A model generated the notes under the pieces. It was given only the letters and a program-made list of their open reading frames with translations. It searched no databases and was not told where the DNA came from. Below are positions 8,515 through 53,353 of a stretch of 64,000 nt of DNA, piece after piece. Position 1 is the first letter of the stretch. Each line of letters begins with the position of its first letter. The stretch lies in contig CAZKSF010000001.1 of the NCBI GenBank assembly GCA_964555405.1, positions 26,536 to 90,535 on the forward strand, given 5' to 3'. Position numbers and translations under genes: made by a program. This DNA is from an uncultured Bacteroides sp. (GTDB lineage Bacteria > Bacteroidota > Bacteroidia > Bacteroidales > Muribaculaceae).

Positions 8515-8926
8515 GGAAAAAAGTTCCTATAAGTTCAGCAAATTTATCAGCAGCTTCCTGCATCTTACCTCCTACCATGGGTCGCAACACTACAGGAATC
8601 TCAACGTCAATGGTGCTGACAACTCCTGTTTTATCGCCCGCTTCCGAAAGGTCAAGTGACAGCATCATCGGCACAGGTGAATTTTTTGCTTTCAAAGCAA
8701 CATGTTTAGGAGCTACCCGGTCGGTCACTTCAAATACCATCTCCCCTACTGGTGCGGCATTTATCACAATCGAATCCGGAGTGAAACGTACTTCTCCTAT
8801 TTTACCGCGTATTTCATCAGGGAGTTCATCAAGACGCGACTGATATGCCGAGAAATCACTCAGACGTGCATATGCGGTTTCTATCGGAGCATCGATAACC
8901 ACCGGTTTACTTGAATATTTAGCCAT
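8492..8926 (-). CDS. SRPBCC/START-fold family protein
   Basis: Size, position downstream of pyrE as in other Bacteroidales, and C-terminal helix LRPMVGGKMQEAADKFA; start placed at ATG 8926. Confidence 0.75.
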   Translation of the reverse strand: MAKYSSKPVVIDAPIETAYARLSDFSAYQSRLDELPDEIRGKIGEVRFTPDSIVINAAPVGEMVFEVTDRVAPKHVALKAKNSPVPMMLSLDLSEAGDKTGVVSTIDVEIPVVLRPMVGGKMQEAADKFAELIGTFFRADGAKS

Positions 8927-8940
8927 AAATGAAGCGGGAA

Positions 8941-28874: not shown

Positions 28875-31800
28875 TTACAGCGAGACGTTCGACGGAGTTT
28901 CTGACGGTTCTTCAGGCTTTACAGCCTCCGCGACGGTCTTTTTCCGTGGACGGAGATGGCGGAGGAAGCGGAATACATCGCGGATCGAACCGACCTTCTT
29001 TTTATACACGAATCCGACACCGGTCTGCGTCACTTCGCCTTCGAGAATACTTTCATATCCGGTGTGACGGAACAGACGTACATACATTGATCCGCTCTTG
29101 TTAATCACGTACTCAAAAGAGATATCGCTTATAAGATTCTGTGAAAAATTCTCGTCCACATTATCATCAGTGGAATAATTTCCACCTACGACAATCTTGA
29201 AACGATCATTGAACAACGATTTCGACACACTGTAACTGTAGCTGGTGGTAGTGCCTGTACTGCCGTCAGTGGTTGTTTCATACTGATTCATTCCGAACGA
29301 CAGATCCACTCCCTTGATTGTTTTTGCAGCCCACGCGTTGAGACGTCCTGTCAGGAACGAATAAAGTGGATTACCCGACAGATTGGCGCTTCCGCGCGTC
29401 TCCGGACCATTGTACACATTAGTAAGCAACAGGTTCATTGCCTCGCTTGCGCGCTGTTGTGGAGTCATCGAAGCAAGTTCGTTCTGCACCGTTATGTCAT
29501 TGTCGGTGGAGAGGTCGAACGACAGATCGAGCGCTGACAATGTTCCCCCTACTCCGAGTGTGACTGCGAAATCAACTATACGTGAATTCTGACCCGACTG
29601 CACGATGTTGGCTTTTACATTGTCCACCGCCTTGATGTTTAGCTGGGGATTCATCATGTCGCCGGTAAATGCCACATAACTCCCCTCCTGAAAAATGAAA
29701 TTCTTTTCCGAAAGCACCGGTGGAATACTGTATCGTACGTTACCTCCATTGATATTGAACCTACCGATAAGCCTGCCGTTGTTCTGAGGATTCATGTTGA
29801 ATGAAAGCAAGCCGTCGCCCTGCACCGACACACGGTTTGATCCGTCGGTGTTGAGATATACGTTCAATGTGGTACCCTTCGAAACGGTAAGTTCGGCATT
29901 CAGATTCATCATCATGCCCGGAGCAGATATGGTATCGGCATTCAGAACTTGTGTGGTATCGCTGAAATTCACGAATTTCACCATTTCCTCGTCTGACTGT
30001 GACCCCACCGCCAATCCACTGTCATCCATTATATATGTCACATTTGTTCCCTGAAGCAGGTTAAGGTCGGCATCTACGTTAAGCAACGTCATGTTTCCAT
30101 GCACATCGACATCAGCGTTGATGAATGCTTTACCGAAAGCATCGGCGCCACCGCGCGCACGGTTCGTATTCATGATCTGCATGTTCCGTGCGGTCATTTT
30201 CAGGTCTATCTGGACATCGGACAGTTTACGTGCATCTACTGTTCCGTTTACGCTCAGCGGATTATCGTTTGCGGCAGTTATCGCGAAACCGTCGAAATGC
30301 ACGATATTGCTGTCCACCGGAATCTGTCCGTCCGAGAATTTGAAAGTGGAACCAAGCATTCCCACATTGACAGCCGTTGAATCGAACTGGATGAAGCCGT
30401 TGAACACCGGCTCTATCATTGAACCCGTTATATCCATAGTACCGTTTATCATACCGCTCAGACGGGCATAATCTTTGGGCAGGAACGGATTGAGGATATG
30501 CAACGGGAAATGTATCATCGAAAAATCGAGGTCAAACGGATGAATCGCCGTTGTATCGTTCAGATGACCTCTTGCGGTTATCACCTTTACACTGTCGACC
30601 AGAAGAGAGGCATCGGCATGCAATGAGCCGTTTGCCGAATTGGTTACATCCAGCCCCACTCGGAACGATCCCACACGGTCTCTGCCGTAATACAGATCGG
30701 TCAGGCTCACCACTCCCGTACCGGTGAGTTCGTTTGAGTTCCATTTGAAACGGAGATCGGCTCCCAGGTCACCCTTGACAGGAGGAGCGAACGGTGATAC
30801 CGCCAGCCAGTCGGAAAGGTGTATATCCGAAAGCTGCATTACCACATCTTCCTGTTCGTTTCCGAGCGAATCAGCCGCTTCGTCATGCTCGGTATAAAGC
30901 CTGATGGAACTGTTTTCATTACGCATCGTCAGATCGGCGTCAATATGCCGGGTAACGAAATTATATGTCACAAAATTATCTTTATTCAGCTCCCATTTCT
31001 TATATCCGATTGTGGGAGTAAACGGCACAAAACGCACTGTTACGGCTGAATCGGCAGCTATTGCCGACAGACCGAGCAAAAATCCCTGATCCCCCTCTAT
31101 ATTCGATTGTCTCAGGAGTGCCGATACTCGGTCATCACCTAAGAATCCCGATAGGGTGACATGGGCGAAGCCGTCCATCGTACCGCGGCGGTTATTGATC
31201 TTGGCTGTATAAGCCAGATACTTGCCATGCTGGATAACGCCTACCGAAAGTGTATCGATGCGCGTACTGCCGCTGATCAAGCCGAGTATGTTGGCATTCA
31301 TGGATATCAGGGAGTCGTTGGACAATGATAGCCGCGCACTGTTCACACTCATTTTCGAATCACGGAGAAAATCCCCGGCAATATTGTTCATTCCTCCCAT
31401 TTCCGCGATTATCGCCAGCGGTGGCAAAGTCTGCTCAAGCGCTATGATATCCGCATTGCGTTGTGAGATTATAGAGTCGATCTGAACTGAGGTCGCGGTG
31501 ACGCGTGCCAGCAAGGTATCAAGTCCGCATCCTGCCGCCATACGTGCATGTAAGTCACCGTTGTTGAGTTCTCCGGTGACAGTCGAATCGGAAGTCACCA
31601 GCCGGACCCCTATTTCGGGGGTGGAAAGCACCATATCAGGCATTGCCCATTTGAGGGAAGTCACATTCAGCCCGGCATCAATATTTTTGAAGTCAGCCGA
31701 TGCCGAACCCTCCGACTTGATTCCCATCGAACCCTGCATGGCAGATTCGGTGATTTTCATCGCGCCGAGATCAATATTATGCACCATTCCGTCCAGTGAC

Positions 31801-33710
31801 CAGGTAATGCCGGAATCGGCTACCAGGGCACGGAAATCCATATCAATGTCCGCATCTCTGTTCATTGAGCGCAATGATCCCGTGGCTTGCCCCTCGTCAA
31901 GCTTCGCATTCATGGTAATGTTCCGGTATGACTGATCCATGTATACCACATCGGTTACATCGGCTACAAAATTCAGCTGTGTGCCCGACTTGAAAAAATC
32001 CAGTCCTTTACCTTCTGCCGCGAGTGATGCCGTGACATCCCCTACTCCAAGAGATGGCATAAACGAGGCTACCGGGAATTTACGCACATCCAGGTTCGCC
32101 TTATATCGTTCGCCAAGCTGTACCCAGTTCCCCTTGAAACCGATATTGCCTTTCCCTGATCTGATACCTAAAGTACCGGAAGTCATCCGGGGAGAATAGG
32201 TGATGTCACCGGTAAGGACAGTATGCGGTATATTTATTTCTTTTGCAAGACGTGCCTCGAGGAGCGTCGGCTTTATCGAGTTAAGCCCCATTGCATCGAC
32301 CTTAAGCGATATTTTTCCGTCAATACGGTCTGCGTCAAAAGGATTGCTCACCTCTCCACTCCCTTCCAACGAAAGGAACCGCGCTATTGACGCACTGAGT
32401 TCTTTCACATTGATGTGCCCGGATGTCCCGTCTAAATCGGCATGGAGTATCGCCGGCGAACGGGGAACGCCCCGGAGCATCGGCACAATCGACGGCATGG
32501 CAAGTTCGGCATCCTCCAGTCCGAGCTGACCATCGAGCTTAAGCTGTAACGGCAACGATGCGTCAGTGGTGAGATCTCCCACCCCCATAGCGGCATTCAA
32601 CGATACCGACGAATAGTCAGTAGCTATTTTGAATTGATCGGCACGCATGAGTTCATTTTCCATGCTGAACACACCGCTCGCGCTGAGCGCTATGCCACAC
32701 CTCTCGCGTCCATACAGACGTGTCAGCGGAACGGTAATCGAAGTACCGCGGTTATAGAAGGAATCAACTGAAATCTCGACATCGTTTACCTGCAGATAAT
32801 TCATGTCGATACCGGGAAGAGGCGCGGCGCCACGCATGGCATATATTGCCGAATCCGCATTGAGCCGCAAGGTGCCGGCGGTTATTGTCCACAATGACGA
32901 ACTATCAGTCGCTACAGTATCCACAGGAACTGGGCGTTGCGGATGTGAGGCAAGCCATTCCGCATCCGGGAGCAGATAAAGTACTTTTCCTAAGGCGGCA
33001 TCCAGCGACTTTACGGTTATGCTACGTGAACCCATATCGATGCGTCCGCCGTCGAGTTCCGCAGATGCCACATGGCAATCGAGAGAGTCGATCGTAGGAA
33101 GCATCTGCATGCGGTAATCCACATTTTTGAGTTCGAGTTTCCCGGCGGTTATCAGCCATGGGGTGGACGCAACCGTATCAACCGGTGTCGGGGTAATGGT
33201 ATCAAGCATTATCAGCGATACCCTTGCACCGTCCACCGTGGCATGACCTACATCTATTTTCCCTGATTTAAGCTGAAGATCGGTCTCATCGAGGTCAAAA
33301 CGGTCGATATGTGCCCGTAACCACATTGCAGAATCGGGAGTGCCTAACTGATAGAAACCATTGTCGAGTGTGACCGATTTGACATCGATGTTCAGTTTGA
33401 GCAACGCTAATGGTGAAACCGAAAGTGATGCCGAACGTGCCGTCACCATCGTGTCACCTGTCGCTTCAAGCACCACTACATCGTCGACTCCCACACGCAG
33501 CGGGAATTTGAGACTGAGTCTACCCACCTGAATATTCATACCGGTAGACGCGTTTACCTTGTCAAGGGCTATGGTTTTTACTTCATTCTGAACCCAGGGT
33601 ATATACAGAAGAGCCGGAATGATAACTATTAACGCTATCACTACCAACAGAGTCCATTTAAGAATCCTCGTTATGAGGTGGTATATTTTCTTTCCTATTG
33701 AAGTATCCAC
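28875..33710 (-). CDS. Translocation/assembly module TamB-like protein
   Basis: N-terminal membrane anchor, long beta-taco body and C-terminal DUF490-like segment (SKSLFNDRFKIVVGG...GVGFVYKKK); GTG start. Confidence 0.9.
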   Translation of the reverse strand: MDTSIGKKIYHLITRILKWTLLVVIALIVIIPALLYIPWVQNEVKTIALDKVNASTGMNIQVGRLSLKFPLRVGVDDVVVLEATGDTMVTARSASLSVSPLALLKLNIDVKSVTLDNGFYQLGTPDSAMWLRAHIDRFDLDETDLQLKSGKIDVGHATVDGARVSLIMLDTITPTPVDTVASTPWLITAGKLELKNVDYRMQMLPTIDSLDCHVASAELDGGRIDMGSRSITVKSLDAALGKVLYLLPDAEWLASHPQRPVPVDTVATDSSSLWTITAGTLRLNADSAIYAMRGAAPLPGIDMNYLQVNDVEISVDSFYNRGTSITVPLTRLYGRERCGIALSASGVFSMENELMRADQFKIATDYSSVSLNAAMGVGDLTTDASLPLQLKLDGQLGLEDAELAMPSIVPMLRGVPRSPAILHADLDGTSGHINVKELSASIARFLSLEGSGEVSNPFDADRIDGKISLKVDAMGLNSIKPTLLEARLAKEINIPHTVLTGDITYSPRMTSGTLGIRSGKGNIGFKGNWVQLGERYKANLDVRKFPVASFMPSLGVGDVTASLAAEGKGLDFFKSGTQLNFVADVTDVVYMDQSYRNITMNAKLDEGQATGSLRSMNRDADIDMDFRALVADSGITWSLDGMVHNIDLGAMKITESAMQGSMGIKSEGSASADFKNIDAGLNVTSLKWAMPDMVLSTPEIGVRLVTSDSTVTGELNNGDLHARMAAGCGLDTLLARVTATSVQIDSIISQRNADIIALEQTLPPLAIIAEMGGMNNIAGDFLRDSKMSVNSARLSLSNDSLISMNANILGLISGSTRIDTLSVGVIQHGKYLAYTAKINNRRGTMDGFAHVTLSGFLGDDRVSALLRQSNIEGDQGFLLGLSAIAADSAVTVRFVPFTPTIGYKKWELNKDNFVTYNFVTRHIDADLTMRNENSSIRLYTEHDEAADSLGNEQEDVVMQLSDIHLSDWLAVSPFAPPVKGDLGADLRFKWNSNELTGTGVVSLTDLYYGRDRVGSFRVGLDVTNSANGSLHADASLLVDSVKVITARGHLNDTTAIHPFDLDFSMIHFPLHILNPFLPKDYARLSGMINGTMDITGSMIEPVFNGFIQFDSTAVNVGMLGSTFKFSDGQIPVDSNIVHFDGFAITAANDNPLSVNGTVDARKLSDVQIDLKMTARNMQIMNTNRARGGADAFGKAFINADVDVHGNMTLLNVDADLNLLQGTNVTYIMDDSGLAVGSQSDEEMVKFVNFSDTTQVLNADTISAPGMMMNLNAELTVSKGTTLNVYLNTDGSNRVSVQGDGLLSFNMNPQNNGRLIGRFNINGGNVRYSIPPVLSEKNFIFQEGSYVAFTGDMMNPQLNIKAVDNVKANIVQSGQNSRIVDFAVTLGVGGTLSALDLSFDLSTDNDITVQNELASMTPQQRASEAMNLLLTNVYNGPETRGSANLSGNPLYSFLTGRLNAWAAKTIKGVDLSFGMNQYETTTDGSTGTTTSYSYSVSKSLFNDRFKIVVGGNYSTDDNVDENFSQNLISDISFEYVINKSGSMYVRLFRHTGYESILEGEVTQTGVGFVYKKKVGSIRDVFRFLRHLRPRKKTVAEAVKPEEPSETPSNVSL

Positions 33711-33843: not shown

Positions 33844-35040
33844 TTATTTCAAGAGCGCTATGGCACAGCCGATACGGCGCATAGCTTCCTCGATGTTACT
33901 GTCGGAAGTCGCATAGCTCAGACGTATGTATCCCGGCATCATGAAAGCTGATCCGGCAACGGTTGCCACATGCGCTTCCTCAAGCAGATACATTGCGAGA
34001 TCACTGTCGGTTGCGATTACATTTCCGTCGGGAGCCGTTCTGCCAAGCACGCCGCTTACTTCCGGAAATAGGTAGAAAGCGCCTTGCGGTACATTTACTT
34101 TCCAGCCATCGATTTCCGAAGCGAGTCGTACTATCAGATCGCGGCGGCGTTCGAATGCTTTACGCATTGTCTCCACACAATCCTGTGGACCCGAATAAGC
34201 GGCTTCGGCTGCTTTCTGGGCTATTGACGAAGCATTGGAAGTCATCTGTCCCTGCAGCTTGTTCACCGCTTTGGCAATGGCGACCGGAGCCACACAGAAA
34301 CCGATACGCCAGCCGGTCATGGCATAAGCCTTTGAGACACCGTTTATTATCACGGTACGGTCGGCAGTTTCGGGGAATGAAGCCATTGATGTGTATGCAC
34401 CGGTGTAATTAATATGACGGTATATTTCGTCAGCCAGTATCATTACATCCGGATACTTTGCAAGTACATCCACCAGTGCCTGCAGTTCGTCACGGGTATA
34501 TACGCTACCTGTAGGATTGGACGGTGAACATAGCATTATCATACGTGTCCGCGGAGTAATCGCCGCCTCCAGTTGCGCCGGTGTTATCTTGAAGTCGGTG
34601 TCTATGGTAGCCGGGACTTCAATCGAGACAGCCTCGGCAAGCTTTATCAGTTCGGTGTAACTAACCCATGCGGGAGTAGGCACGATTACCTCGTCACCGG
34701 CGTTGAGCGTGGCAAGGAGGACATTTGCGATTGCCTGCTTCGCACCGTTCGACACCACAATCTGCTCCGGAACAAACTCTGTCGCATCCTCGGCATTCAT
34801 ACGGTCGCATATCGCGCGGCGCAACGAAAGATAGCCCGGAACCGGGGTATAGCGCGAAAAATTATCAGCAACCGCTTTTATAGCAGCGAGTTTTATATGG
34901 TCGGGGGTATCAAAATCCGGTTCTCCGACCGACATATTTATCACGTCAATGCCCTGAGCTTTCAGCTCATTGCTTTTCTGCGACATTGCCAGGGTCTGCG
35001 ACACCGCCAATGCATTTACTCTCTGAGATATCTGTATCAT
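33844..35040 (-). CDS. aspC: Aspartate aminotransferase (PLP-dependent class I)
   Basis: GEPDFDTP, SNGAKQA, CSPSNPTG, DEIY, PLP-lysine NGVSKAYAMTGWRIG and RLSYA; start at ATG 35040. Confidence 0.93.
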   Translation of the reverse strand: MIQISQRVNALAVSQTLAMSQKSNELKAQGIDVINMSVGEPDFDTPDHIKLAAIKAVADNFSRYTPVPGYLSLRRAICDRMNAEDATEFVPEQIVVSNGAKQAIANVLLATLNAGDEVIVPTPAWVSYTELIKLAEAVSIEVPATIDTDFKITPAQLEAAITPRTRMIMLCSPSNPTGSVYTRDELQALVDVLAKYPDVMILADEIYRHINYTGAYTSMASFPETADRTVIINGVSKAYAMTGWRIGFCVAPVAIAKAVNKLQGQMTSNASSIAQKAAEAAYSGPQDCVETMRKAFERRRDLIVRLASEIDGWKVNVPQGAFYLFPEVSGVLGRTAPDGNVIATDSDLAMYLLEEAHVATVAGSAFMMPGYIRLSYATSDSNIEEAMRRIGCAIALLK

Positions 35041-35059
35041 CTGCAATTATCTAAATCAG

Positions 35060-35094
35060 GGTGCAATATTCGCAATTTTTTACGACATATGCAA
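35060..35094. repeat. 35-bp direct repeat, copy 1 (promoter-like, upstream of aspC)
   Basis: ggtgcaatattcgcaattttttacgacatatgcaa, 34/35 identical to 39977-40011. Confidence 0.9.
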
Positions 35095-35120
35095 GTCATG
35101 TCCCAAAATAGCCGCCCGGC

Positions 35121-38100
35121 TTACCGGATAATCACCTTGCTCCGGCATACGATATAAATACCGGTATCGAGACCTCTCACACGACATACCTCTCCGCTCC
35201 TGACTTCAGCCATCCTTACCGGCACTCCCTTCAGATCATATACCGGAATCCGGCAACCTACCGCACTCCGTATGCACAGCTCGTTGCCTTCGGTCCATAT
35301 TTTCACACCTTGCCATGACATCAGTTCTTCTATCGAACTGTTGTCGAAAATCGGGATCATACGGCGTGAGTCATTCGACATCATGAAACATTCGAAGGGG
35401 CGCACATCGCGCAAGCCTCCTACAAACACACTTCCCGGTTCATTGCCGTCGAGTTTTTCGTCATTGATAATGCGGAATTGCTCGTCGGCTGTGCGTCCGC
35501 CGAACTCAGCAAAGAGCAGCGATCCGCTGAAGCAGGGTTTTCCTTCCGGTTCGGGCGTAGCCTCTACGGCGGCATTTGTGGCACTGAACCGCACTTCGCC
35601 AAGTATGTTGTAACTGTCGATATATTCCGGATTGTTAGGCATCGATATCAGATACGGCTCATAAGCGAGTATCTCGCCGGTCATTTCCCAGCCGGCGGCT
35701 GTCGGGCGGTATAGCCAGAACGGGCGGTCATCATCTTTCGCCGTAGCAAAGGGTCGAATTTCACTCACTGCGTCATTTATCGTTTCCACTCTGAACGGCA
35801 AAGCGATTGTCTCCCAGCCGGCGCATGTCCCGATTATAGTCGGTTTGCTGAAATGACGCGTATAGCTTATCTCACGCGCCGTGAAACTTTGTGGCGCGTG
35901 GAACGGATAGCGGTCGGTCAACCGTATGGCTGAGGCATACCCGTTCTCTATCCGGTTCATCACTCCGCACTCCCCTGTCGGATCACCGTAAGGCAGATAC
36001 ATCAGAAGGTTGGGATTAGTGGTCCCTTCGGTCAGACGCCCGTCGACACGTAGTGCTGCCGAATGCCACACTATGGCGCAGAGACCGGGATTACCGGCGA
36101 ACACACCATTGCCGTAAGCATTCATCGCTGCAGGCATATCCACCGTTACAAGTCCGGTCGAAGCAAGGGCCCCGTCCGGCATGACGGCACTCGTTACATC
36201 CGTCAGGTCAAGGTAACGCAACGCATGCAGCGAGCGTATGAACGAGTAGTCGGTTTCATCAAGCTCGCCTGCTACGGCAAGACGCAGTGTCTCGTCAGGC
36301 ATTCCTTCCGGCGCCCAGCCATAACATGAGGCGAGGATTCCGGGACGGGAAGTGACTGCATGATTCTCGTCGGCATACCCTTCGACGGAATATACAAGTG
36401 GCTCTGAATCCATATAGCCCTGCTTGACCGCTACCGCACGCACCGTCACCAGACCACCGGCATCGAACGCGCCGTCATAGATAATTCCTTCGGCGGGATT
36501 GCCGTCGCTGAAAGTATAGCGTATTTCGGCATCGGGTTCTCCGGTAGCAAGTGTGATATATCTGCCGTCATAATTGCTGACTGTCACTCCGGCACATATG
36601 AATTGTCTGATCAATATCTCCGCTGTCTCCGATTCAAGATAATCGGGCGCCTTGGCGCGGGCATACACAGTACAGTTACCTTCCACAGTTATCGGACCGG
36701 CATACGTAGCCCATTCGCCGGTAGAGTCATTGACCGCGTAACTGATCGCTGCACCCGGCGTAGCGCACCGGAGAGTAAGCAGCATCTCCTCACGATTGAA
36801 TTCACCGTATGGTTTGGCGGTGGTTTGTCCGGTCATGGCATACCACACCGTTTCCGAGTCGTACATTCCTGCCTTGCGCCCCTGAGCGTAGATTGTGAGA
36901 TTACCCTCAATAGCCACCGGACCGCTGTATTCACTCATCACCGATGTATCATCGTTACCGATCGAGTACCATATTGTGGAACCTTCGGTGACTGCGGTCA
37001 GCGTTACGATATTACCGGTAACGCTTATCAGCGGCGCGGCGACCGTGTGCTCGGCGCGGACGAAACTGTATTCGGCGATTTCCGACGGATTGAATCCCGC
37101 ACGGTAGGAACGTGCAAGTATTGTGGCGTCGCTTTCCGGAGCGACAAAAGGTGAATCGTAGAGAGTCGACGACTCCGACGGTTCACTTCCGTCAAGAGTG
37201 TAGTAGGTAGAGGTTCCTTCCATCTGCTCGGATTGTATCTCTATCATCAGATCGCGGAAACCGATCGAAGGTGCCGACACCTGATTTCCCATGTCTGTGA
37301 GATAGAAAGTGAATTGTCCGGGAGAATCCGGGGCGGCATCGCGTAGTATTCCGTAATAAACTCCGGCAGGGAGATCGGGACAGATCATGGCGTTGAGGCT
37401 TTCTCCGGAGACAGTCGCTTCGAGAACCCCGTCGCGCCATAAATCGAGCGTAACAGGTATATCGGTACGGAGATAAAGAGGTGTGCTGTCGGCAGTGAAC
37501 CGTATGGCTGCAAATTCACCCTGCCCCGGAGTGGAGAACTGATGAATCGAGTTAACCTTCATGTCGGTCACTACGGCACTATAACTTCCCTTTATCTCTA
37601 ATTTCCACATTTCGGGAGGTGCCCAGCCGAGTTCGGTACGCAATTGCATAATGTAACGCGCGGAATCGCTCGATTCTACCGTGATCCGGTCATCCTCGAA
37701 GCGTGGCTGCTGACCCGCGATATGGAACTGAAGCGAGTCAGGCAAATCGACGGTGAAGGTATAACTGTCGGAAAGTGTCCGCTCCACTTCCACAAAACCG
37801 AGATCGATGCCGTTGATATAGTGGCGGTAACCGGTTACGGGCGCACGCATACTGTCGCTGTAGAATACAATCAGTTTTCGGTAAACGGAACTCCAGTCGC
37901 CGTCATCATCGCGGAGACGCAGGTTGAAGTAGTGGGCTCCGCAGCTCTTGTCAAAGTCCGACAGGTCGACTTCAAAGCTGGCCGGATTTCCATCTGCCGT
38001 CGATGACACGCGGTTGAGGTAGTCGTTGTCAAACCAATATTCATATTCCGTAAAGCGTGAAGCATTGGATTCTATGAAGAAATACTTCATAAAGGGAGCG

Positions 38101-38936
38101 CCCCACACTCCTTCACAGGTCTGAATGCGGTAGCTGATTCTGTGCAGACCCTTGCGTATACCGGTTAGGTCAACTTCATATGTGTTTGCTTCGGAAGAGA
38201 GTTCTCCCGAGAATCTTTCATTATAATTGTCATCAATCCAGTATTCGTAGGCTACCGCGTCATCCGATCCTACGAGATTCACTATCATTTTCCGATAGAC
38301 ACTGCCCCGGCTACCGTCGATATACCCGAGACGGCAGTTAAAATAGTGAACCCCGGCGGGCAAAGAGGAAATATCAAGTTCAAGGTGATTGCTTCCGAAC
38401 GGTATATCACCCGACACTTTCGAAGCATAGTCATTGTCAAACCAATACTCATAGGATATGGCACTGTTATCCTGTCCTATTGATTGAAACATCTTTCGGT
38501 AGACGGGTCCCCACACACCATTGCCATATCCGACACGGCAATTGAAGAAATGGATTCCTTTAGGAAGTGAGGATAAATCAAGTTCCAGATATCGTTTTCC
38601 CGATGATATATCACCGGAAATCTTCGAGTCAATATCATTGTCAAACCAATACTCATAGGATACGGCACTGTTATCACTGCCGAAGGAATGAAACATACGG
38701 CGGTAGACGGAGCCATATATGCTGTCACCTTTCGCGAGGCGGATATTGAAGTAATGGATGCCTTTGGGTAGGTCGGAGGTATCGATCAGAAGGTCGAATG
38801 ACTTGCCGGACACAGTACCGGTTTGCACAGACGAAGCATCATTGTCGAACCACCACTCATAACTGTCGGGCGTGACAGCCTGTATAATGCCGGCAGTAAG
38901 GAGTAACGCTGTGATTATTGAGTAAAGTTTTCCCAT
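35121..38936 (-). CDS. Large T9SS-type cell-surface scaffold: five 68-aa YEYWFD repeats, four CHB_HEX_C/Fn3-associated domains, short LRR-like segment, CTD
   Basis: Signal peptide; YExWxD repeats at aa 26, 94, 162, 230 and 298; TYYTLDGSEP-type stalk repeats; CTD with YDLKG...GIYIV...KVIIR. Confidence 0.85.
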   Translation of the reverse strand: MGKLYSIITALLLTAGIIQAVTPDSYEWWFDNDASSVQTGTVSGKSFDLLIDTSDLPKGIHYFNIRLAKGDSIYGSVYRRMFHSFGSDNSAVSYEYWFDNDIDSKISGDISSGKRYLELDLSSLPKGIHFFNCRVGYGNGVWGPVYRKMFQSIGQDNSAISYEYWFDNDYASKVSGDIPFGSNHLELDISSLPAGVHYFNCRLGYIDGSRGSVYRKMIVNLVGSDDAVAYEYWIDDNYNERFSGELSSEANTYEVDLTGIRKGLHRISYRIQTCEGVWGAPFMKYFFIESNASRFTEYEYWFDNDYLNRVSSTADGNPASFEVDLSDFDKSCGAHYFNLRLRDDDGDWSSVYRKLIVFYSDSMRAPVTGYRHYINGIDLGFVEVERTLSDSYTFTVDLPDSLQFHIAGQQPRFEDDRITVESSDSARYIMQLRTELGWAPPEMWKLEIKGSYSAVVTDMKVNSIHQFSTPGQGEFAAIRFTADSTPLYLRTDIPVTLDLWRDGVLEATVSGESLNAMICPDLPAGVYYGILRDAAPDSPGQFTFYLTDMGNQVSAPSIGFRDLMIEIQSEQMEGTSTYYTLDGSEPSESSTLYDSPFVAPESDATILARSYRAGFNPSEIAEYSFVRAEHTVAAPLISVTGNIVTLTAVTEGSTIWYSIGNDDTSVMSEYSGPVAIEGNLTIYAQGRKAGMYDSETVWYAMTGQTTAKPYGEFNREEMLLTLRCATPGAAISYAVNDSTGEWATYAGPITVEGNCTVYARAKAPDYLESETAEILIRQFICAGVTVSNYDGRYITLATGEPDAEIRYTFSDGNPAEGIIYDGAFDAGGLVTVRAVAVKQGYMDSEPLVYSVEGYADENHAVTSRPGILASCYGWAPEGMPDETLRLAVAGELDETDYSFIRSLHALRYLDLTDVTSAVMPDGALASTGLVTVDMPAAMNAYGNGVFAGNPGLCAIVWHSAALRVDGRLTEGTTNPNLLMYLPYGDPTGECGVMNRIENGYASAIRLTDRYPFHAPQSFTAREISYTRHFSKPTIIGTCAGWETIALPFRVETINDAVSEIRPFATAKDDDRPFWLYRPTAAGWEMTGEILAYEPYLISMPNNPEYIDSYNILGEVRFSATNAAVEATPEPEGKPCFSGSLLFAEFGGRTADEQFRIINDEKLDGNEPGSVFVGGLRDVRPFECFMMSNDSRRMIPIFDNSSIEELMSWQGVKIWTEGNELCIRSAVGCRIPVYDLKGVPVRMAEVRSGEVCRVRGLDTGIYIVCRSKVIIR
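37850..38864 (-). repeat. Five tandem 204-bp (68-aa) intragenic repeats
   Basis: The first Tyr codons fall at 38861, 38657, 38453, 38249 and 38045; a 41-bp block at 38431-38471 and 38635-38675 is 40/41 identical. Confidence 0.9.
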
Positions 38937-38953
38937 CTACGTATGGTTGGGAA

Positions 38954-39919
38954 TCAGTCAGCCTTGACTGTAATATTGACCCTCAGTTTGTTGGTGGCAG
39001 CATCGTATTCCACTGAACTCTTGGCTGTGTCGACTGTGGGAACCGATGGATTTTCGGAGAAGGGAGAATCTCCGCCGTCAATCCCTACCACAGTACCGTC
39101 TTGTCCCAGATAACCTAATTCAGTCAAATCCAATGGGCAATTCATCTCACTATCCAAAAGTTCTTCTGTGTCCTCCGTATAGTAATAGCAGTTATGCTGA
39201 TAAATCGAAGTACAAGTTGGCGTTTCATTCAAGACGGAGTTAATAAAAGAAGATGTAATAGCACCACTATTAGTTAAATTAGCGTCCTTATTTTGTAAAA
39301 TACACGAGATTACTGTCGATGGACAATACTGACTGTTTAGTTTTATATTACAATTAATCATTGTGGTAGAGTGTGCGTAGCCTACTAACGTCAACTTTGA
39401 GTTTTTTATAAACACACTTCTATCATAACTTCCTTCAAAATCAGCTCTTTCTATGATACATTTATCATAGGTCACCTCTTGTCCTGCGTAACCACCAGCA
39501 ACAAGATCTCTTATCCAGCATCTTCTGATTTCAGATCTATATAAATTCCCTAAGGAATTAAGCTCCTCATAAAAAAAGAGTCTATCCAATCTTACACCAT
39601 CAAATAACGGCGCTTCCATATAGGAATTAGGATTAGATGACATATCGAAAGTAATATTGCCTAATATATGAGAGCCATATCCGTTACCTATAATACTCAG
39701 ACGTTTACGAATGGTATATGATCCTCCCCTAATAACGAAGTCGCCTTCCGACAGATAAATGGTATCGCCATTGACTGCGGCGTCAACAGCGCTTTCAAAT
39801 GCCGCGAGATTGGTGAAGAATGAGAGTTCGCCGTTATGAGACAGTGTCACCATAGGATTCTGTGCTAATGCTGCTACAAAAGTGCCTATAACTACGATCA
39901 TTGAAAAGATTCGCTTCAT
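38954..39919 (-). CDS. Secreted beta-helix-like hypothetical protein, co-transcribed with the scaffold
   Basis: Signal peptide ending ALA-Q; AVDAAVNGDTIYLSEG start, Asn/Cys/Ile-ladder core and YLGQDGTVVGIDGG motif; ends in two short beta-strands with no T9SS CTD; 17-bp gap to the scaffold gene. Confidence 0.75.
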   Translation of the reverse strand: MKRIFSMIVVIGTFVAALAQNPMVTLSHNGELSFFTNLAAFESAVDAAVNGDTIYLSEGDFVIRGGSYTIRKRLSIIGNGYGSHILGNITFDMSSNPNSYMEAPLFDGVRLDRLFFYEELNSLGNLYRSEIRRCWIRDLVAGGYAGQEVTYDKCIIERADFEGSYDRSVFIKNSKLTLVGYAHSTTMINCNIKLNSQYCPSTVISCILQNKDANLTNSGAITSSFINSVLNETPTCTSIYQHNCYYYTEDTEELLDSEMNCPLDLTELGYLGQDGTVVGIDGGDSPFSENPSVPTVDTAKSSVEYDAATNKLRVNITVKAD

Positions 39920-39976
39920 TGTGTGCGTATTTGAGATTTGTAATTGATTGGTTTGTGTTTGTATTGAGGTTAATAA

Positions 39977-40011
39977 GGTGCAATATTCGCAATTTTTTCC
40001 GACATATGCAA
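39977..40011. repeat. 35-bp direct repeat, copy 2 (promoter-like, upstream of the two-gene cassette)
   Basis: ggtgcaatattcgcaattttttccgacatatgcaa; on the minus strand it reads TTG-N20-GAatATTG-CA. Confidence 0.9.
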
Positions 40012-40060
40012 ATAAAAAAACGAGAGCGTGTCATACCTGAGTATTATGACACACTCTCGT
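40012..40060 (-). terminator. Terminator of the susCD operon
   Basis: acgagagcgtgtcata / tatgacacactctcgt stem with an A-run at 40013-40020 (U-tail on minus strand); abuts repeat copy 2. Confidence 0.8.
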
Positions 40061-40088
40061 CGGAGTTGGGATTATTGGTGTTTATTTA

Positions 40089-43000
40089 TTACTTTGGAGG
40101 GAAAAGAAGCATAAGCGACGGAACAGAAGAAGCTGTGTAACTGCCTATTACAGCTCCTTCGGGAGTCTGGTTCCAAGATTCTCCATCGCAAATGTTACGC
40201 GAAGGATCGCGGCGCGCCCACCCTTCAATTATATTATTCTCGATGAACGGACGGAACTGTTCCTGACCGCACTCATCAACCAAAAGCTTCATATACTGCA
40301 CCCAGATTGCAGGATAGATCCCTTGTTCAAGACCACCCTGATCCATAAGATTACGGCGGTTGTGCGCCCACGGAAGCAGACCATGATCACGTGACATCAC
40401 ATCTATGCTGTACTCGGCAGCCTTGACCGCATTATCAAGATAGCGCTGCTCACCGGTGGCGAGATACAGCAATGCCGAAGCTCCGATATAGGTGCCCTGA
40501 TTGTAGATGAGTGAGCCGCCACGGCGCTCATGACCTGCAAAATGGTCGACCACCTGACCGGTAGCGGTATCGACAAGACTGTCGACACTCCAGTCATATA
40601 TCTCGCGTGCCATCTCCATGTAGCGGTCGCGCGTCTCATAGGCAGGGCGGGTGAAATCGCCGTAACCGTTACTCCATGTTTCGGGCTTCTTGTCAGCCTT
40701 TCGTTTGGCGGGAACGGAATTGTGAAGCAGGACTGCCGCAACGACGGTCGGGAAATTTATACACGACATTTTTCCATCGGTGGCGTTCGGATATTTGGGA
40801 TCACGTAACGGTTGCCACTGCCAGAACATTCCGCCTCCGAGACCCTTTGCCGGATCGGCATAACTGCCGGCGTCACCTACTTCGGGCGACCCGTACCACA
40901 CACGGGCAAAACTCTGCTCGGCAAGACGGCGGTAAGCCTCATTTCCGGTCTGCAGATAGGCTCGCGCCATAGTGATGGTCCACCATTGGATATCATCGTA
41001 GATAAACCATCCTAATGTCTCGTCGGCATTGTCAAAATCAAAATTGAGGTAGTGCCGGATATTACCTTCGAGTATACGGTCAGCAAGATCGGCATAACGT
41101 GCTTCCCGGTCCTTGTCACCGGTCTTAGCTGCAAGAGCCGCAGCATTAAGCGCCATATCGGCAAACATCGGCTGGCACCAGATTGCAGCGGCGCCGTTGA
41201 AACGGTCTGTCGCCTTTGGATCAGCCGAGGTATTGCGGTAGATCATCTTATCGGTGTCGAGATAAACATTGTTGAATGAATCATATGCTTCCCATACATC
41301 ATCAAGAGTGTAAGCGGCAGGAAGCGCAGCAGCCGGATCCCATGAGAATGACACATGAACACCATAGGGATTATTCTCGAAGCGTACGCGGTAAGTTGAA
41401 CTTACCTCGTCCCAGTCGGCATCATCAAACACCTCTTCACCGTCGATCGTCACACTTGCGGGACGGACAGGAAGATAAACGCGTGCGACAGCCGAGGTCT
41501 CCACCGGACCCTTGGCGAGATAACTGAAATGCCCCGGAGCCGCTTTCTCATTGTATTCACGCGAAGCTGAAGCGAGCACCCGTGGAACGGTACGGTCGGT
41601 CATGCGCTGCGGATGCACGAGCAGCGCGTGATGTCCGGGGGCGACGCTGTAAGTGGAATGTACGGTAAGTTCCGGATCGTAAAGATCGATCACGGGTCCG
41701 GTAACAATTACCGGCTCATCACTGACACTTTCGTCAACCACGCCTATTACCTCATACACTCCGCGGTCAAGACGGAAATTGTTCTTGACTTCAAGTTCTC
41801 CGGCACGGGCTCTCTGCTCGTAAAGGCGTTTTACCTCATTGAAAAGCTGCTCGTCGCCTCCTTGGCTGAGGATATATTCCTTTGGGTCATGACGCATGAC
41901 AGTCACGGTACCTCTGCCTGCGCGGTGTTCACCTTCGGCAGGATGACGTCCGAGACCGAGTGTCTCGAAAAGGTGTTCGGATGGGGCTGCATAATCGTTA
42001 TCGCCGGTATTCCACCATTCGCTGACACTCTGGAAAGGATCGGCATCCGTTCCGGTAAACAGCAGGTGACCGCCGGACTCCACCCATGCGGCAAGCTGAC
42101 GATGTGCGATGCTGTCAAGAGGTTTCATATTGGAATAAGTCATCAACAGCACTTTGATATCGGCGAGAGCCGGTCCGTAACCTAAATTCTCGATATGCAC
42201 GGTCTGCACCGGGATTCCGCGCTTTATCATGGGGAGAGCCATTCCGTAAAAATTGGCAAGCTGCGGATCATCGTAACCTTCATGCTGTGGAAAGCGCTGG
42301 AACATCAGGGAGTTCCCCATAAGCACACCGATACCCTGCGATCCGCTGACCCGATTGCCGGAACGCGGCATCTTGTTAAGCGCGTTTACCATCACCTGCA
42401 TCTGAGTGGAGTAGAAGCGGGGTATGCGTCCACGCTCCTCACTGTCGGCACTCATGCGGTAGAGTCCCTCGTAGATACGCTCCGGCCAGGGCATTACCTC
42501 AAAATCGGATATACCCGGATAGAGCAGCTGGGCGGTGAAGGTTGCCTGATAATTTCTCCGGTAGTCCTCCCAGTCCTTTGCGCGGTCCTCGATGGGATCG
42601 GTGAGGAAAAACATCTTACGTCCGGTCGGGGCGGTCATGGCTTCCATTGATCCGTATTCGAGATATGCGGTCTCGAACACACGCTCGCGCTGCTTACCGT
42701 CGTAGAAATTAGGTTCGCGGGATGTACCCGTCCATACCTGGGCGATATATCCGTCGCACGACGGAAGCGAAGCGAGACTTGCCTCCGGACTTACAATCTG
42801 CCATTGGGAATAATTGACCAGAGAGTGAGTGGGCACATAGCATTTGACATCCATACCTTTGGACTTGCCATATTCCTTGGCGAAGGTGAAGATTTCGTCG
42901 AGCGCACGGTAATAGAGATGATATTTGAGTTTGTTGGAGAGATAAGTTGCTTCCGGCGACTCGTCCTGCGGACGCCAGTCGGTGCCGTAATACTCTTTCC

Positions 43001-43505
43001 ACTCGCGCTTGAATGCATCGCTGTATCCGCTCCGTGCCCAGAACTCCGGTTCCTCCATGAAAATGGCGTCGATTCCGGCATCTATGACACGCTTTATGTG
43101 TCGTCCCTTGAGATATTCGAGAAAGTTTTTCGACGGAACGATGTAAGGCACCAGATGTCCGTGCCATATCGTGTCGCCGCGCTGATTCACCTGTCCCTCG
43201 TCCAGGTGCCACTTTCCGTCCCAACCGCCGGTGAAATAGTCCTGATACTCACCCCATGCTATACCGGTCATGAAATGTACGGTATATCCATGATCGCGCC
43301 ACGAACTGACACGCTCCTCGAACGAATTGCTCCGGTGGCGGTCGGAAGGATTTCCTCCCACACCGTACACCATAACGGCATCGGCGCGGTTATCGATAGT
43401 CGGTCGCCACTCGCGCGATGTCTGGAAAGTAGTCTTGACATCGGTCTGCGCCAGCAATGCAGCGGGCATAATTACCGAAGCGAATAAAGTTATTATCTTA
43501 CTCAT
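40089..43505 (-). CDS. Fusion of an unclassified GH-like N-terminal module (~720 aa) and a C-terminal GH76 (~415 aa)
   Basis: SPI-type signal peptide; GH76 catalytic YDDIQWW and YNQG motifs; the N-module has a GH42-trimerisation-like segment (KVLLMTYSNMKP...WVESGGHLLFTG). Junction near 41340. Confidence 0.8.
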   Translation of the reverse strand: MSKIITLFASVIMPAALLAQTDVKTTFQTSREWRPTIDNRADAVMVYGVGGNPSDRHRSNSFEERVSSWRDHGYTVHFMTGIAWGEYQDYFTGGWDGKWHLDEGQVNQRGDTIWHGHLVPYIVPSKNFLEYLKGRHIKRVIDAGIDAIFMEEPEFWARSGYSDAFKREWKEYYGTDWRPQDESPEATYLSNKLKYHLYYRALDEIFTFAKEYGKSKGMDVKCYVPTHSLVNYSQWQIVSPEASLASLPSCDGYIAQVWTGTSREPNFYDGKQRERVFETAYLEYGSMEAMTAPTGRKMFFLTDPIEDRAKDWEDYRRNYQATFTAQLLYPGISDFEVMPWPERIYEGLYRMSADSEERGRIPRFYSTQMQVMVNALNKMPRSGNRVSGSQGIGVLMGNSLMFQRFPQHEGYDDPQLANFYGMALPMIKRGIPVQTVHIENLGYGPALADIKVLLMTYSNMKPLDSIAHRQLAAWVESGGHLLFTGTDADPFQSVSEWWNTGDNDYAAPSEHLFETLGLGRHPAEGEHRAGRGTVTVMRHDPKEYILSQGGDEQLFNEVKRLYEQRARAGELEVKNNFRLDRGVYEVIGVVDESVSDEPVIVTGPVIDLYDPELTVHSTYSVAPGHHALLVHPQRMTDRTVPRVLASASREYNEKAAPGHFSYLAKGPVETSAVARVYLPVRPASVTIDGEEVFDDADWDEVSSTYRVRFENNPYGVHVSFSWDPAAALPAAYTLDDVWEAYDSFNNVYLDTDKMIYRNTSADPKATDRFNGAAAIWCQPMFADMALNAAALAAKTGDKDREARYADLADRILEGNIRHYLNFDFDNADETLGWFIYDDIQWWTITMARAYLQTGNEAYRRLAEQSFARVWYGSPEVGDAGSYADPAKGLGGGMFWQWQPLRDPKYPNATDGKMSCINFPTVVAAVLLHNSVPAKRKADKKPETWSNGYGDFTRPAYETRDRYMEMAREIYDWSVDSLVDTATGQVVDHFAGHERRGGSLIYNQGTYIGASALLYLATGEQRYLDNAVKAAEYSIDVMSRDHGLLPWAHNRRNLMDQGGLEQGIYPAIWVQYMKLLVDECGQEQFRPFIENNIIEGWARRDPSRNICDGESWNQTPEGAVIGSYTASSVPSLMLLFPPK

Positions 43506-43587
43506 TGATTATGATTGATTTGAAATGGCCGCGCCACATGATATGCTCATCTGACGCGGCCACTGAAGTCTGTGTACCGGCTCCTTG

Positions 43588-44400
43588 TCAGGGCACGAGA
43601 ATCTGCATGGGCTCGCTATAGTTATAGCGGCGTACTTCAGCCGTGGAGTAATTGATACGGGCGGCAGCGCGGATATAGACACGCTGACCCGAGGGTATCT
43701 CTCCGTTTGAAGTAATAGTGATCTCCTTGCCGAAATAGTCATCGAAATCACATCCCTGGAATGTCGCGGAAGCTGACCAGCGCTCGTCGCGCGCACGATA
43801 ACCTACCGATGACGAGTAGCTTACGAACAATTGTACGTCAGTTACGTTAAGCAGGTCGTCGGAGTAATCGGAACGGGTCGGCTCGATCTTGTCGCGGAAA
43901 TCGGATTTCGCAACAGCACGCTCTACAACGATTTTGGCTTTTACCTGACCGTTGCTCACCTGCGGTTCGCCAACGATGCGGACTTTAAGGAACGGCTGTA
44001 CCTCGAATTTCACCTTGGCAGTACCCTTGATATATATTTCCTGACCTTCGTCGGCAAGCAGGACACCGTCGGGAGTCTCGCGTACGATAGGGATGAACGG
44101 TCCGTCGACACGCACATAATAGTGACCGCCGAATACCTTGGTGTTCTGGAATGTGCCGTCCGGCATTGCGTAAAAGTCGGGGTTATGATCGGCGTTCTCG
44201 CCCCAGCTCAGTTCTGTCATGCGCACACGGATTCCTTCGCTACCCTGATCGGTAAGGACGCGTTCGCCTGTGGCGACATCCACCACCTCGCCCCAGATGG
44301 TCTCTTCAGGCTCGTCGTAATTGTCGATCTCAAAGAGACTGCAGGAACTCATCGACATCATCAGTGCAGCAAGTGTGCCGAATATTTGAAGTTTTTTCAT
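43588..44400 (-). CDS. DUF3823 lipoprotein (surface glycan-binding candidate)
   Basis: Lipobox MSSC; IDNYDEP...GEVVD..TGE and DGTFQNTKVF..GPF motifs; directly after susD. Confidence 0.85.
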   Translation of the reverse strand: MKKLQIFGTLAALMMSMSSCSLFEIDNYDEPEETIWGEVVDVATGERVLTDQGSEGIRVRMTELSWGENADHNPDFYAMPDGTFQNTKVFGGHYYVRVDGPFIPIVRETPDGVLLADEGQEIYIKGTAKVKFEVQPFLKVRIVGEPQVSNGQVKAKIVVERAVAKSDFRDKIEPTRSDYSDDLLNVTDVQLFVSYSSSVGYRARDERWSASATFQGCDFDDYFGKEITITSNGEIPSGQRVYIRAAARINYSTAEVRRYNYSEPMQILVP

Positions 44401-44430
44401 TGCGATTGGTTTTCGTAAGAGAGTTATTTA

Positions 44431-46497
44431 TTAACGGTTAGGCTGCTGATCGATTACAGAGCTCTTGTTCACCTCACCGCCGGGGATTGAGAAGTAGTAG
44501 TCAACCGGGCTGTAGCTGAGCTGCTTCGATGCCATATTCTGGAAATGGGTGTCGAAGAAATATTTGTTGTTGGCTACGCAATAGAACGGATACAGACCAC
44601 GGAAACGGTAATTGTTGCTGTTGCTGAATGAATCCTTGTCGCGGACCTCGCCCCAGAAACCGTCACGACCTTCGTAGTGCTGTACACGCCAGCGACGGAT
44701 ATCCCATTTTGCCTGATGTTCGAAAGCAAGCTCCTTGCGGCGTTCGCGGCGGACTATGTTACGGCTCTCTACCGATCCGGAGAGTGTTCCGGTAAGCTGG
44801 TCGGCACCGGCACGCTCACGGATATCCTTTATAGCCTGGGTGGCGACTGCAAGCATATCGGTACCGTCGGGCGACTGAACGCCGGCGATCGCAAGTTCTA
44901 CGGCTGCCTCAGCCGCGTCAAGAAGCACTTCGGCATAACGCATCAGTATGTAGGGCTGATCGCTCACACCCTCACGACCTCCGATGAAATCGGGATCAAG
45001 CCATTTACGGGTAACAAGACCTGTGACACCTGACTCACCGTATGAGCGGTAAGGTCCGCATGGACCGGTTGCAGGCTTTTCGTTGCCGAATATATCGGTG
45101 ACATATTTCAGCTCGGTAGGACTTGCGCTCATTACAAGCTGATCAGCCTTGGCACATGAAGTGAACTCCTGAGTGGCGTTACCATAGGTATAATCGTTGA
45201 AAAGCGATGTCACGGGGAGGGAACCGGTATACGAACCGGCATACGAGTCAATTGTACCGCCGGCGAATTTGTCACCGGGGAATATTACCTGTGCGCGGAG
45301 ACGAGGCTCGGCATTGGCGAAGAAATCGTAAAGATTGTCGAACATCAGGTACTCGCCTTCGGTAATCTTATCGCCGGTAGTCACCTTAAGGGTGCCGTCG
45401 GGATAACGGTCAAATCCGTCGAAAAGCTCTACAAAATCAGCTGTCGGGCAAGTACCGCAGCTAAGCGGTGAGTGATAGGGGTAGCTTGTGCCCGGAAGAT
45501 ACGGACCGTTGTAGCCGTCGTAGCTGTGAGTGGAAGTGGGATACATGTATTCCTTTACCCACAGATGCTCGGTACTGTTGACATCAAATGTCATGTCGAC
45601 GAGGTTCTCATACTGTGCGTTGCGGTCGTTCGCAGCCCACTTTGATTTGTGAAGCGAGTAAACATTATCGGAAATGATTTCTGAAGCTGCTTTGTAGGCT
45701 TCAGCGAAATAGCGTTTTGATGCTGCTTCCCAGCTGTCGGGCGCGAAACCCATGACACGTACGTTTGTCTTGGAACCGAAACCGGTGAGGTTGCCGTCGA
45801 CAGTCTGATTGTATTTGGCGACAGATCCGGCATAGAGCATGGCACTCGACTTATAGGCAAGAGCTATGTAACGGTTGACATAACCGCGCTTGATGCTCTG
45901 AGGCATCAGAAGTTCGGCTGCTGTGGTGTAATCCTCCAGGATCTGATCCCATGTTTCTTCCTCGGATGAACGGGGAACTTCCAGATTATCCTGATCCTCG
46001 GGATAATTGATCACGCGGGTTACCAAAGGTATACCACCGTAACGCATCGCCATCTGAGTGAACATGAAGGCACGGATGAAGTATGCCTGTCCGAGATAGT
46101 TATTATAGGCGAGTTCGGTGAAATTGCCGCGATAGGCGGGCAGATTTTCGATAAGGAAGTTAGCCTTACGCAATTCACGGAAAGCATCTCTCCAGCAATC
46201 ACCGGCTTTTTCCTCACCGGTGAATGCGGTAACGATACCGTCACGACCTACAGCTTCGCCTGTTCCTTCAACACCCTTGCTGACAAGCCAGCCGTTGAAG
46301 TTGGGACCGCGCTGCGGCAGATATTTCAGGTCCTCGATGGGGAGGTTACTGTAAAGCTCGGCGAGATACAGTTCCATTCCACCCTCGTTGCTGAGAAGGT
46401 CATCGGCTGTCATCATGTTTTTGGGCGAGATGTCAAGGTCGACACACGAGGTGAGAAGACTCAGGCCCATGATGGTTGATATGATGATTTTTTTCAT
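44431..46497 (-). CDS. susD: SusD/RagB family lipoprotein
   Basis: Lipobox LTSC; GQAYFIRAF, YGGIPLV, MRYAEVLL and ERRKELAFE...WDIRRW. Confidence 0.95.
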   Translation of the reverse strand: MKKIIISTIMGLSLLTSCVDLDISPKNMMTADDLLSNEGGMELYLAELYSNLPIEDLKYLPQRGPNFNGWLVSKGVEGTGEAVGRDGIVTAFTGEEKAGDCWRDAFRELRKANFLIENLPAYRGNFTELAYNNYLGQAYFIRAFMFTQMAMRYGGIPLVTRVINYPEDQDNLEVPRSSEEETWDQILEDYTTAAELLMPQSIKRGYVNRYIALAYKSSAMLYAGSVAKYNQTVDGNLTGFGSKTNVRVMGFAPDSWEAASKRYFAEAYKAASEIISDNVYSLHKSKWAANDRNAQYENLVDMTFDVNSTEHLWVKEYMYPTSTHSYDGYNGPYLPGTSYPYHSPLSCGTCPTADFVELFDGFDRYPDGTLKVTTGDKITEGEYLMFDNLYDFFANAEPRLRAQVIFPGDKFAGGTIDSYAGSYTGSLPVTSLFNDYTYGNATQEFTSCAKADQLVMSASPTELKYVTDIFGNEKPATGPCGPYRSYGESGVTGLVTRKWLDPDFIGGREGVSDQPYILMRYAEVLLDAAEAAVELAIAGVQSPDGTDMLAVATQAIKDIRERAGADQLTGTLSGSVESRNIVRRERRKELAFEHQAKWDIRRWRVQHYEGRDGFWGEVRDKDSFSNSNNYRFRGLYPFYCVANNKYFFDTHFQNMASKQLSYSPVDYYFSIPGGEVNKSSVIDQQPNR

Positions 46498-46518
46498 TGC
46501 ATTTACAAAATTAGTGAT

Positions 46519-49680: not shown

Positions 49681-49703
49681 ATGTTTGATTGATTGATTAT
49701 TTT

Positions 49704-51158: not shown

Positions 51159-51186
51159 CGTTTGTCAGTGCTTATGGTTACTTATA

Positions 51187-52983: not shown

Positions 52984-53353
52984 GTTTGATTGGATAAGGA
53001 ATATTGATTATTATTGTTTTCGGTAAGAATGTTCAGACGTTTATTCACTTGGCAAAGTAATTAAATCTTTTTTAACCGAGCAAGCGGTGTTTACCCGATA
53101 ATTCTTAATTTACGTGTCTAAATACACAATTGTCTTAATCGGGCACATTTTACACATGAATATATCACGCCTATGACACAACAATAATTACAATCCTGAT
53201 TATGTGATCGTTACAAAAATAGCATACAAAAAAGTACAGAATGTGGCACATTTTTAATTCACGCACATAACCCCTCTTCGATCCTTTTTGGCTATTTTTG
53301 CAAAAGTTATATTTCATGTCAAAACCAATACAAAAACATAATTAAACCTATTC

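Follow-up and report, generated by a model that had tools for sequence, protein, structure and literature searches.

The 35-bp repeat and its surroundings

We analyzed a 64-kb stretch of DNA from an uncultured Bacteroides sp. (contig CAZKSF010000001.1, hereafter the window), in which two nearly identical 35-bp sequences in direct orientation bracket a two-gene module lying between a polysaccharide utilization locus (PUL) and the aminotransferase gene aspC. Read on the minus strand, the order of the features is the GH76-like gene that ends the PUL, its terminator, the dinucleotide AT, repeat copy 2, a 57-nt leader, the 321-aa open reading frame (ORF), 17 nt, the 1271-aa ORF, 26 nt, repeat copy 1, 19 nt, the aspC start codon, and the TamB-like gene (Table 1). 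The terminator of the GH76-like gene folds with -26.2 kcal/mol (z -6.67) and is followed by a 2-nt gap; copy 2 indeed heads the cassette and abuts this terminator, as an earlier note on this DNA had claimed. No significant terminator was found in the 26-nt spacer that follows the 1271-aa ORF (z -0.07; at most a weak 5-bp hairpin was listed).

The sequence at 35060-35094 (GGTGCAATATTCGCAATTTTTTACGACATATGCAA) matches that at 39977-40011 in 34 of the 35 positions, the sole difference being a C at the 23rd base of the latter, and the longest exact runs shared by both copies are 22 and 12 nt. When the window was searched with the 35-mer allowing up to 3 mismatches, these two sites alone were detected, whereas 100 shuffles gave an expectation of 0. 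Beyond them, no site in a full-window scan matched better than 21/35, which is at chance level. The alignment and both searches thus agree with the 34/35 repeat described in the earlier note. Homology between the copies breaks off sharply on both sides, with the exception of one extra shared A on the 5' side in the minus-strand reading. Further copies of the 35-mer were found neither in the window nor in the contigs of relatives, the Joint Genome Institute (JGI) metagenome contigs (0 matches) or viral contigs (0 matches), which indicates that it is not a high-copy motif, and an Rfam search of the region returned nothing significant. The complete arrangement is also present in the Logan contig L087 (run SRR9335148, 10,429 nt), produced by another assembler, which is 100% identical to 34303-44731 and includes both copies and the whole cassette; L087 is a separate contig record that may share underlying reads with the window.

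To determine to which gene the repeat belongs, we compared the locus with those of relatives. The lineage of the window is poorly sampled, since the best aspC protein among the GTDB species representatives is just 74% identical; the best matches in a collection of 5.8 billion proteins are 88%, 83%, and 80% identical, and an exact-protein look-up returned no record of an identical aspC protein. The closest relative, represented by contigs from four runs (L081-L084, aspC 88% identical at the amino acid level), bears a single element, TTGCATATGTCAGAAAAAATTACGAATATTGCACC, immediately 5' of aspC. This element matches copy 2 at 33/35 positions and copy 1 at 32/35, and the relative also matches copy 1 in the next 7 nt (CTGATTT) and in the preceding AC. 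Over the resulting 44-nt block the window and L081 are identical at 41/44 positions, although their aspC DNA is 76% identical and the four-fold degenerate sites of aspC only 37% (saturated). Because the block is kept despite this divergence, the element is under purifying selection and, since the relative carries it directly 5' of aspC, belongs to aspC, the aspC-proximal copy 1 being the ancestral one and copy 2 the duplicate. The single element in L081-L084, conserved far above neutral sites, supports the proposal that the repeat was copied from the promoter region of aspC. At positions 12 and 22 both window copies have a G where the relative has an A, and at the sole position that differs between the copies, copy 2 retains the G of the relative. 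The shared G12 and G22 place the duplication, or the last homogenization of the copies, after the split from the L081 lineage. Altogether, the repeat exists and is a duplicated and selected aspC promoter region; a recent duplication of the aspC core promoter, from approximately -33 to just before the transcription start, would best explain these comparisons.

Table 1. Features of the locus between the PUL and the TamB-like gene (window positions).
Feature	Position	Strand	Description
TamB-like gene	28875..33710	(-)	After aspC here and in all three closest relatives (conserved synteny)
aspC	33844..35040	(-)	aspC-like class I/II pyridoxal phosphate (PLP) aminotransferase, 398 aa; ATG at 35040
Conserved 44-nt block	35053..35096	(-)	AC + 35-mer + CTGATTT; extends 7 nt past the repeat toward aspC
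Repeat copy 1	35060..35094	(-)	aspC core-promoter-like element, ancestral copy; minus strand TTGCATATGTCGTAAAAAATTGCGAATATTGCACC
Copy 1 sub-boxes	35094-35092; 35071-35064	(-)	-33-like TTG; -7-like GAATATTG
Spacer	35095..35120	(-)	26 nt, 1271-aa ORF stop to copy 1
1271-aa protein	35121..38936	(-)	Signal peptide, CHB_HEX_C_1/Fn3_assoc repeats; 17 nt after the 321-aa ORF
321-aa secreted protein	38954..39919	(-)	Signal peptide; no Pfam or NCBIfam family
Leader	39920..39976	(-)	57 nt, A/C-rich, copy 2 to 321-aa ORF
Repeat copy 2	39977..40011	(-)	Derived copy heading the two-gene unit; -7-like GAATATTG at 39988-39981
Intrinsic terminator of the GH76-like gene	40014..40061	(-)	17-bp stem, 9-nt loop, T7; 2 nt before copy 2
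GH76-domain protein	40089..43505	(-)	1138 aa, last gene of the mannan-type PUL

The TTG at 35046, the first aspC start listed, is an unlikely start, and the ATG is preferred. Two antisense ORFs called mechanically, 34573-35157 (+) and 39901-40140 (+), run across aspC and across the terminator and repeat, respectively; they are almost certainly spurious, and one of them has been called as a 44-aa gene in L087. The PUL (40089-55660) is of the mannan type, with two GH76-domain genes, SusC/SusD, a CarboxypepD_reg-domain protein, a DUF3823-like 270-aa gene, and a divergent GH92. An 'uncultured Muribaculum sp.' contig (L094) shares this architecture; its last gene is 80% identical, a value higher than the identity of the aspC of this genome to that of Muribaculaceae (approximately 70-74%).

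The two-gene module and the origin of the arrangement

The families of the 321-aa and 1271-aa proteins are also paired in other genomes, forming a conserved two-gene module in Muribaculaceae. In one species the module lies in the same chromosomal context in 18/18 contigs read; in JGI metagenomes, 11 loci of the 321-aa family were found, none closer than 56%, and no member of this family was found in viral contigs. The AlphaFold2 model of the 321-aa protein (pLDDT 90) gave weak matches in a fold search to right-handed beta-helix enzymes and tailspikes (best E = 4.8e-3, TM 0.35), which weakly suggests a beta-helix-like protein. The N-terminus of the 1271-aa protein contains five tandem 204-nt (68-aa) YEYWFDND repeats (window 38020-38861), which have no confident Pfam family and the 204-nt period of which recurs in the homologues in L088, L091, and L099. 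By eye the C-terminus of this protein resembles a type IX secretion system (T9SS) sorting domain; the domain search did not confirm it, as neither the last 100 nor the last 471 residues matched Por_Secre_tail or TIGR04183 at a threshold as loose as E<=1. PDB sequence searches with both module proteins returned nothing useful. The low GC content of the 321-aa ORF was considered as a sign of recent transfer and rejected, because the homologues are equally GC-poor relative to their neighbours, making this a family trait. Two candidates for module orthologues in the relative with 88% aspC identity were also rejected: P0131 comes from another study, and P0122 belongs to the same run series as this relative, but its leader is identical to that of the P0131 lineage and its organism is not assignable.

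The expression signals of the module differ between the window and its homologues. In L088 and L089 the module has a canonical TAATTTTG promoter and a leader of approximately 215 nt, and its large gene is followed by a strong terminator; the proximal part of the leader is kept in L091 and L114, both of which end before any promoter. The window module has just 57 nt upstream and 26 nt downstream, and it lacks the canonical promoter of the family, the conserved leader of approximately 100 nt, and the terminator. This highly conserved leader (L088 400-520, L089 1710-1830, L091 1-97, L114 1-122) comprises a hairpin followed by a T-run (CGTAGGA...TCCTACGCTTTTTT) and a CCATATG...CATATGG inverted repeat, both missing from the window; an Rfam search with it gave nothing significant, and it may be an attenuator-like control element. 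In L099, from another species, tandem repeats of 113-134 nt lie upstream of the 321-aa homologue, and a 36-nt motif found there recurs upstream of a gene 3.6 kb away and looks like a regulatory motif shared within the cluster (7745-7972 and 4335-4370). In L088, which is a Muribaculaceae metagenome-assembled genome, the module is followed downstream by a 7/14-nt AGATAAG-type microsatellite (5506-5678).

The explanation that we favor, tentatively and at a little under an even chance, is a single insertion of the module that duplicated 35 bp of its target, the native aspC core promoter. A promoterless and terminator-less fragment with the two genes for secreted proteins would have entered the aspC promoter region, either at a staggered break with subsequent fill-in or through microhomology-mediated template switching, and in both cases the 35 bp would come to flank the insert. 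Selection would have tolerated the event, as neither unit was left without a promoter copy: copy 2, which directly follows the PUL terminator, would drive the module, and copy 1, together with read-through from the module, would drive aspC. We infer that the insertion occurred in one step and that the pre-insertion site was PUL terminator-promoter-aspC. This reading is favored because the module lacks its usual promoter and leader and has a terminator upstream and none inside; because neither recombinase genes nor terminal inverted repeats were found; because L081-L084 carry a single copy 5' of aspC amid a different upstream context; and because the contig record of the second assembler agrees at 100%.

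Several observations weigh against it. Typical transposition footprints are much shorter than a target duplication of 35 bp. None of the relatives found shows the proposed empty site, and in the nearest ones aspC adjoins neither the PUL nor the module. The gene upstream of aspC is PAP2 in L081, HPPK in L086, and a divergent TMEM260-like gene in L085, with aspC-TamB(-Omp85) conserved downstream in all of them; among 80 aspC loci of GTDB species representatives, none has TamB, the PUL gene, or the module adjoining aspC, and no JGI metagenome contig shows a single-copy terminator-promoter-aspC junction. In the two closest orthologues of the PUL (80% and 77%) its architecture is preserved, and each ends at the same position in an unrelated terminator of its own, beyond which lie unrelated convergent genes. 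In addition, synteny with L081 breaks right at the 5' end of the aspC promoter, and the junctions could therefore have arisen by separate rearrangements; both flanks of the cassette are synteny boundaries. That relatives lacking the cassette do not join the PUL terminator to aspC through one copy, an outcome that the earlier note had named as refuting, counts against the insertion model, though weakly given their distance: with synonymous sites saturated, the relatives are too distant to fix the order of events, and the absence of an empty site is weak evidence either way. Two side observations concern these relatives. HPPK, of the folate pathway, is directly upstream of aspC in two of them (L086 901-2600, with a gap of 24 nt; P0005, called as one 558-aa fusion). 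L085 (GCA_023663805.1, JAMPGR010000001.1) is labelled 'Clostridium sp.', but its aspC-TamB-Omp85 genes and those for TonB-dependent receptors are typical of Bacteroidales; its taxonomic label is probably wrong.

The same breakpoint also speaks for an order of events in two steps, which we consider unlikely. According to this alternative, the module was already downstream of the PUL when a rearrangement joined the aspC-TamB block to its 3' end, and a short patch copy of the aspC promoter later replaced the native promoter and leader of the module, e.g., by replication template switching over 4.9 kb. In L081 a block of LysRS, a 175-aa gene, a 145-aa gene, and PRT (1-4093) lies upstream of PAP2 and is the divergent neighbour of aspC; this LysRS-PRT block maps to window 6572-9588, 24 kb off and co-directional, and PAP2 is absent from the window. 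The displacement and orientation of the block imply that the region was rearranged by an inversion-type event, one breakpoint of which falls at about 35095, directly 5' of the aspC promoter. A two-step origin also accords with the upstream neighbour of aspC being different in every relative and with the module being a stable chromosomal operon in one species with many readable contigs. However, it needs an extra unusual event that delivers exactly 35 bp to a precise spot between terminator and leader, the module is not found downstream of the PUL orthologues, and the repeats bracket the module exactly, for which a single insertion is simpler.

Promoter-like layout of the repeat

Bacteroides promoters have a consensus of TTTG near -33 and TAnnTTTG at -7, and most of their 5' untranslated regions (5'UTRs) are approximately 23 nt long (PMC7366714). 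The repeat resembles these sigma-ABfr promoters in having a TTG (TTTG in copy 2), a 20-nt spacer, and an 8-mer ending in TTG that is followed by CA, and the implied 5'UTRs of approximately 17-19 nt and 55-57 nt are inside the B. thetaiotaomicron range (PMC7366714); unlike in the consensus promoters, the -7 box is degenerate (GAATATTG). The minus-strand reading TTG-N20-GAATATTG-CACC is as the earlier note stated, and TTG-N20-GAATATTG-CA agrees with a -33/-7 arrangement of the Bacteroidetes type in which the -7 box is weak. Both copies have the -33 feature with the 20-nt spacer, as TTTG in copy 2 (with the T at 40012) and CTTG in copy 1, and the same spacing is present in canonical promoters of the window, e.g., that of the PRT gene (TTTG-N20-TAACTTTG, with a perfect -7 box). 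Counted from the last G of the box, the ATG of aspC is 24 nt away and that of the 321-aa ORF 62 nt, which are normal 5'UTR distances, and the element is conserved at the orthologous position in L081. In distant orthologues of aspC, TATCTTTGCAC-type boxes (TAnnTTTGCA) occupy the equivalent place. The end of the repeat is 4 nt past the box, just before the expected start site, and hence the duplicated unit would be almost exactly the core promoter.

The match of GAATATTG to TAnnTTTG is limited to 4/6 specified positions, with 0-mismatch canonical boxes present 5' of many other genes of the window, and it tells against a promoter that a 4/6 match is common by chance (approximately 0.04 per position, as calculated) and that other weak -7-like boxes with 1 mismatch exist just upstream of each copy: TATTTTGG at 35110-35103, and TTTATTTG at 40016-40009, overlapping the T-run of the terminator. 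We nevertheless prefer the 35-mer as the promoter because the flanks that hold the alternative boxes are not conserved in L081, and we infer that the 35-mer probably acts as such. These same features, the poor -7 box and the alternative boxes, would be expected if the 35-mer were instead a conserved operator or 5'-leader element of aspC (e.g., a regulator site), the duplication of which brought the module under the same regulator. Partial dyad symmetry in the element (TGCA-N4-TCG..CGA-N4-TGCA) points in this direction too. We judge this role decidedly unlikely: it is the 35-mer and not the sequence upstream of it that is kept between the window and L081, where the dyad is weaker and has no compensatory change; the stretch at copy 1 that corresponds to TTTATTTG contains 3 mismatches; the element does not fold significantly (z -0.9 and -1.5); and no Rfam match was obtained.

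Mobility, known systems and meaning

The best reading of the structure is a fixed chromosomal scar rather than an active mobile element. Only two ORFs lie between the repeats, neither with a transposase domain, and no integrase or transposase was detected among the 40 window proteins scanned against Pfam, a scan that covered the cassette proteins and 35 of the other 36 genes called and left out the 1361-aa ORF at 58391-62476 and ORFs below 150 aa; the statement of the earlier note that none is present is consistent with this. Terminal inverted repeats were not found either (aligned locally, the two 80-nt ends reach a score of 6 at best, versus a shuffle mean of 7.8), nor was a second copy of the cassette in the window, nor direct repeats flanking homologous modules elsewhere. 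The further suggestion of mobilization in trans gains no support from these negatives or from the stable context of the module in one species. Loop-out by homologous recombination is expected to be rare, given that the exact runs span no more than 22 and 12 nt and the copies are 4.9 kb apart.

Direct repeats of 30-60 bp around an insert are typical of site-specific integration, and the ends of this insert are trimmed and lack a promoter of their own, as would be expected if the repeats were the attL and attR of a small integrative cassette that could excise as a circle through a recombinase encoded elsewhere. We regard this as highly improbable, because no recombinase was found among the proteins scanned in the 64 kb, the 35-mer is absent from JGI metagenome and viral contigs, homologous modules have no flanking repeats and are not on viral contigs, the 18 contigs of one species all show the same module context, and the repeat is a host promoter sequence conserved in a relative that has no module there. 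It would be a long shot to propose that the 35-mer is the recombination site of an unrecognized trans-acting Bacteroidales system that inserts promoterless cassettes into core promoters and duplicates the promoter; if so, each insertion would arrive expressed without silencing the target gene. That the window comes from a metagenome assembly raises the question of an artefact or a chimeric join at a short repeat, which is hardly credible: the Logan contig spans both copies without a difference, the longest exact shared run of 22 nt is below the k-mers believed to be usual in assembly, and one mismatch tells the copies apart. Inversion between inverted copies and simple tandem duplication are rejected on geometry, as neither can give 35-bp direct repeats 4.9 kb apart.

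Set against known systems, the locus shares some traits with each. In the rnk-citT event of the E. coli long-term evolution experiment, a kilobase-scale tandem duplication reportedly made a new junction through which a promoter was captured. As there, a copy of a host promoter stands before genes without suitable expression signals while the original gene keeps its own; unlike there, the duplicated stretch is only approximately 35 bp long and lies on either side of a 4.9-kb segment, a structure that a simple tandem duplication cannot yield. Target-site duplications of transposons are similar in that short direct repeats of host sequence lie directly on both sides of an insert with sharp homology edges, but 35 bp is far above their usual footprints, and neither a transposase, terminal inverted repeats, nor other copies of the insert were found. 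Integrative elements of Bacteroidales with attL and attR sites, such as NBU-type mobilizable elements and integrative islands, likewise have direct repeats of tens of bp that bracket a cassette. Here, in contrast, there is no integrase, no tRNA target, and no sign of mobility of the module elsewhere, and the repeat is a promoter conserved in an insert-free relative.

The locus points to neither a new mobile element nor a new mechanism, and its general interest is modest. If the favored reading of a single insertion is true, it would be a clean natural case of regulatory rewiring, in which a housekeeping gene retains its own promoter copy while a cell-surface pair, normally equipped with a promoter of its own and with a long leader that is conserved, is now under a copy of the housekeeping promoter. 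The 35 bp would then also provide a candidate minimal promoter for an uncultured Bacteroidales lineage.

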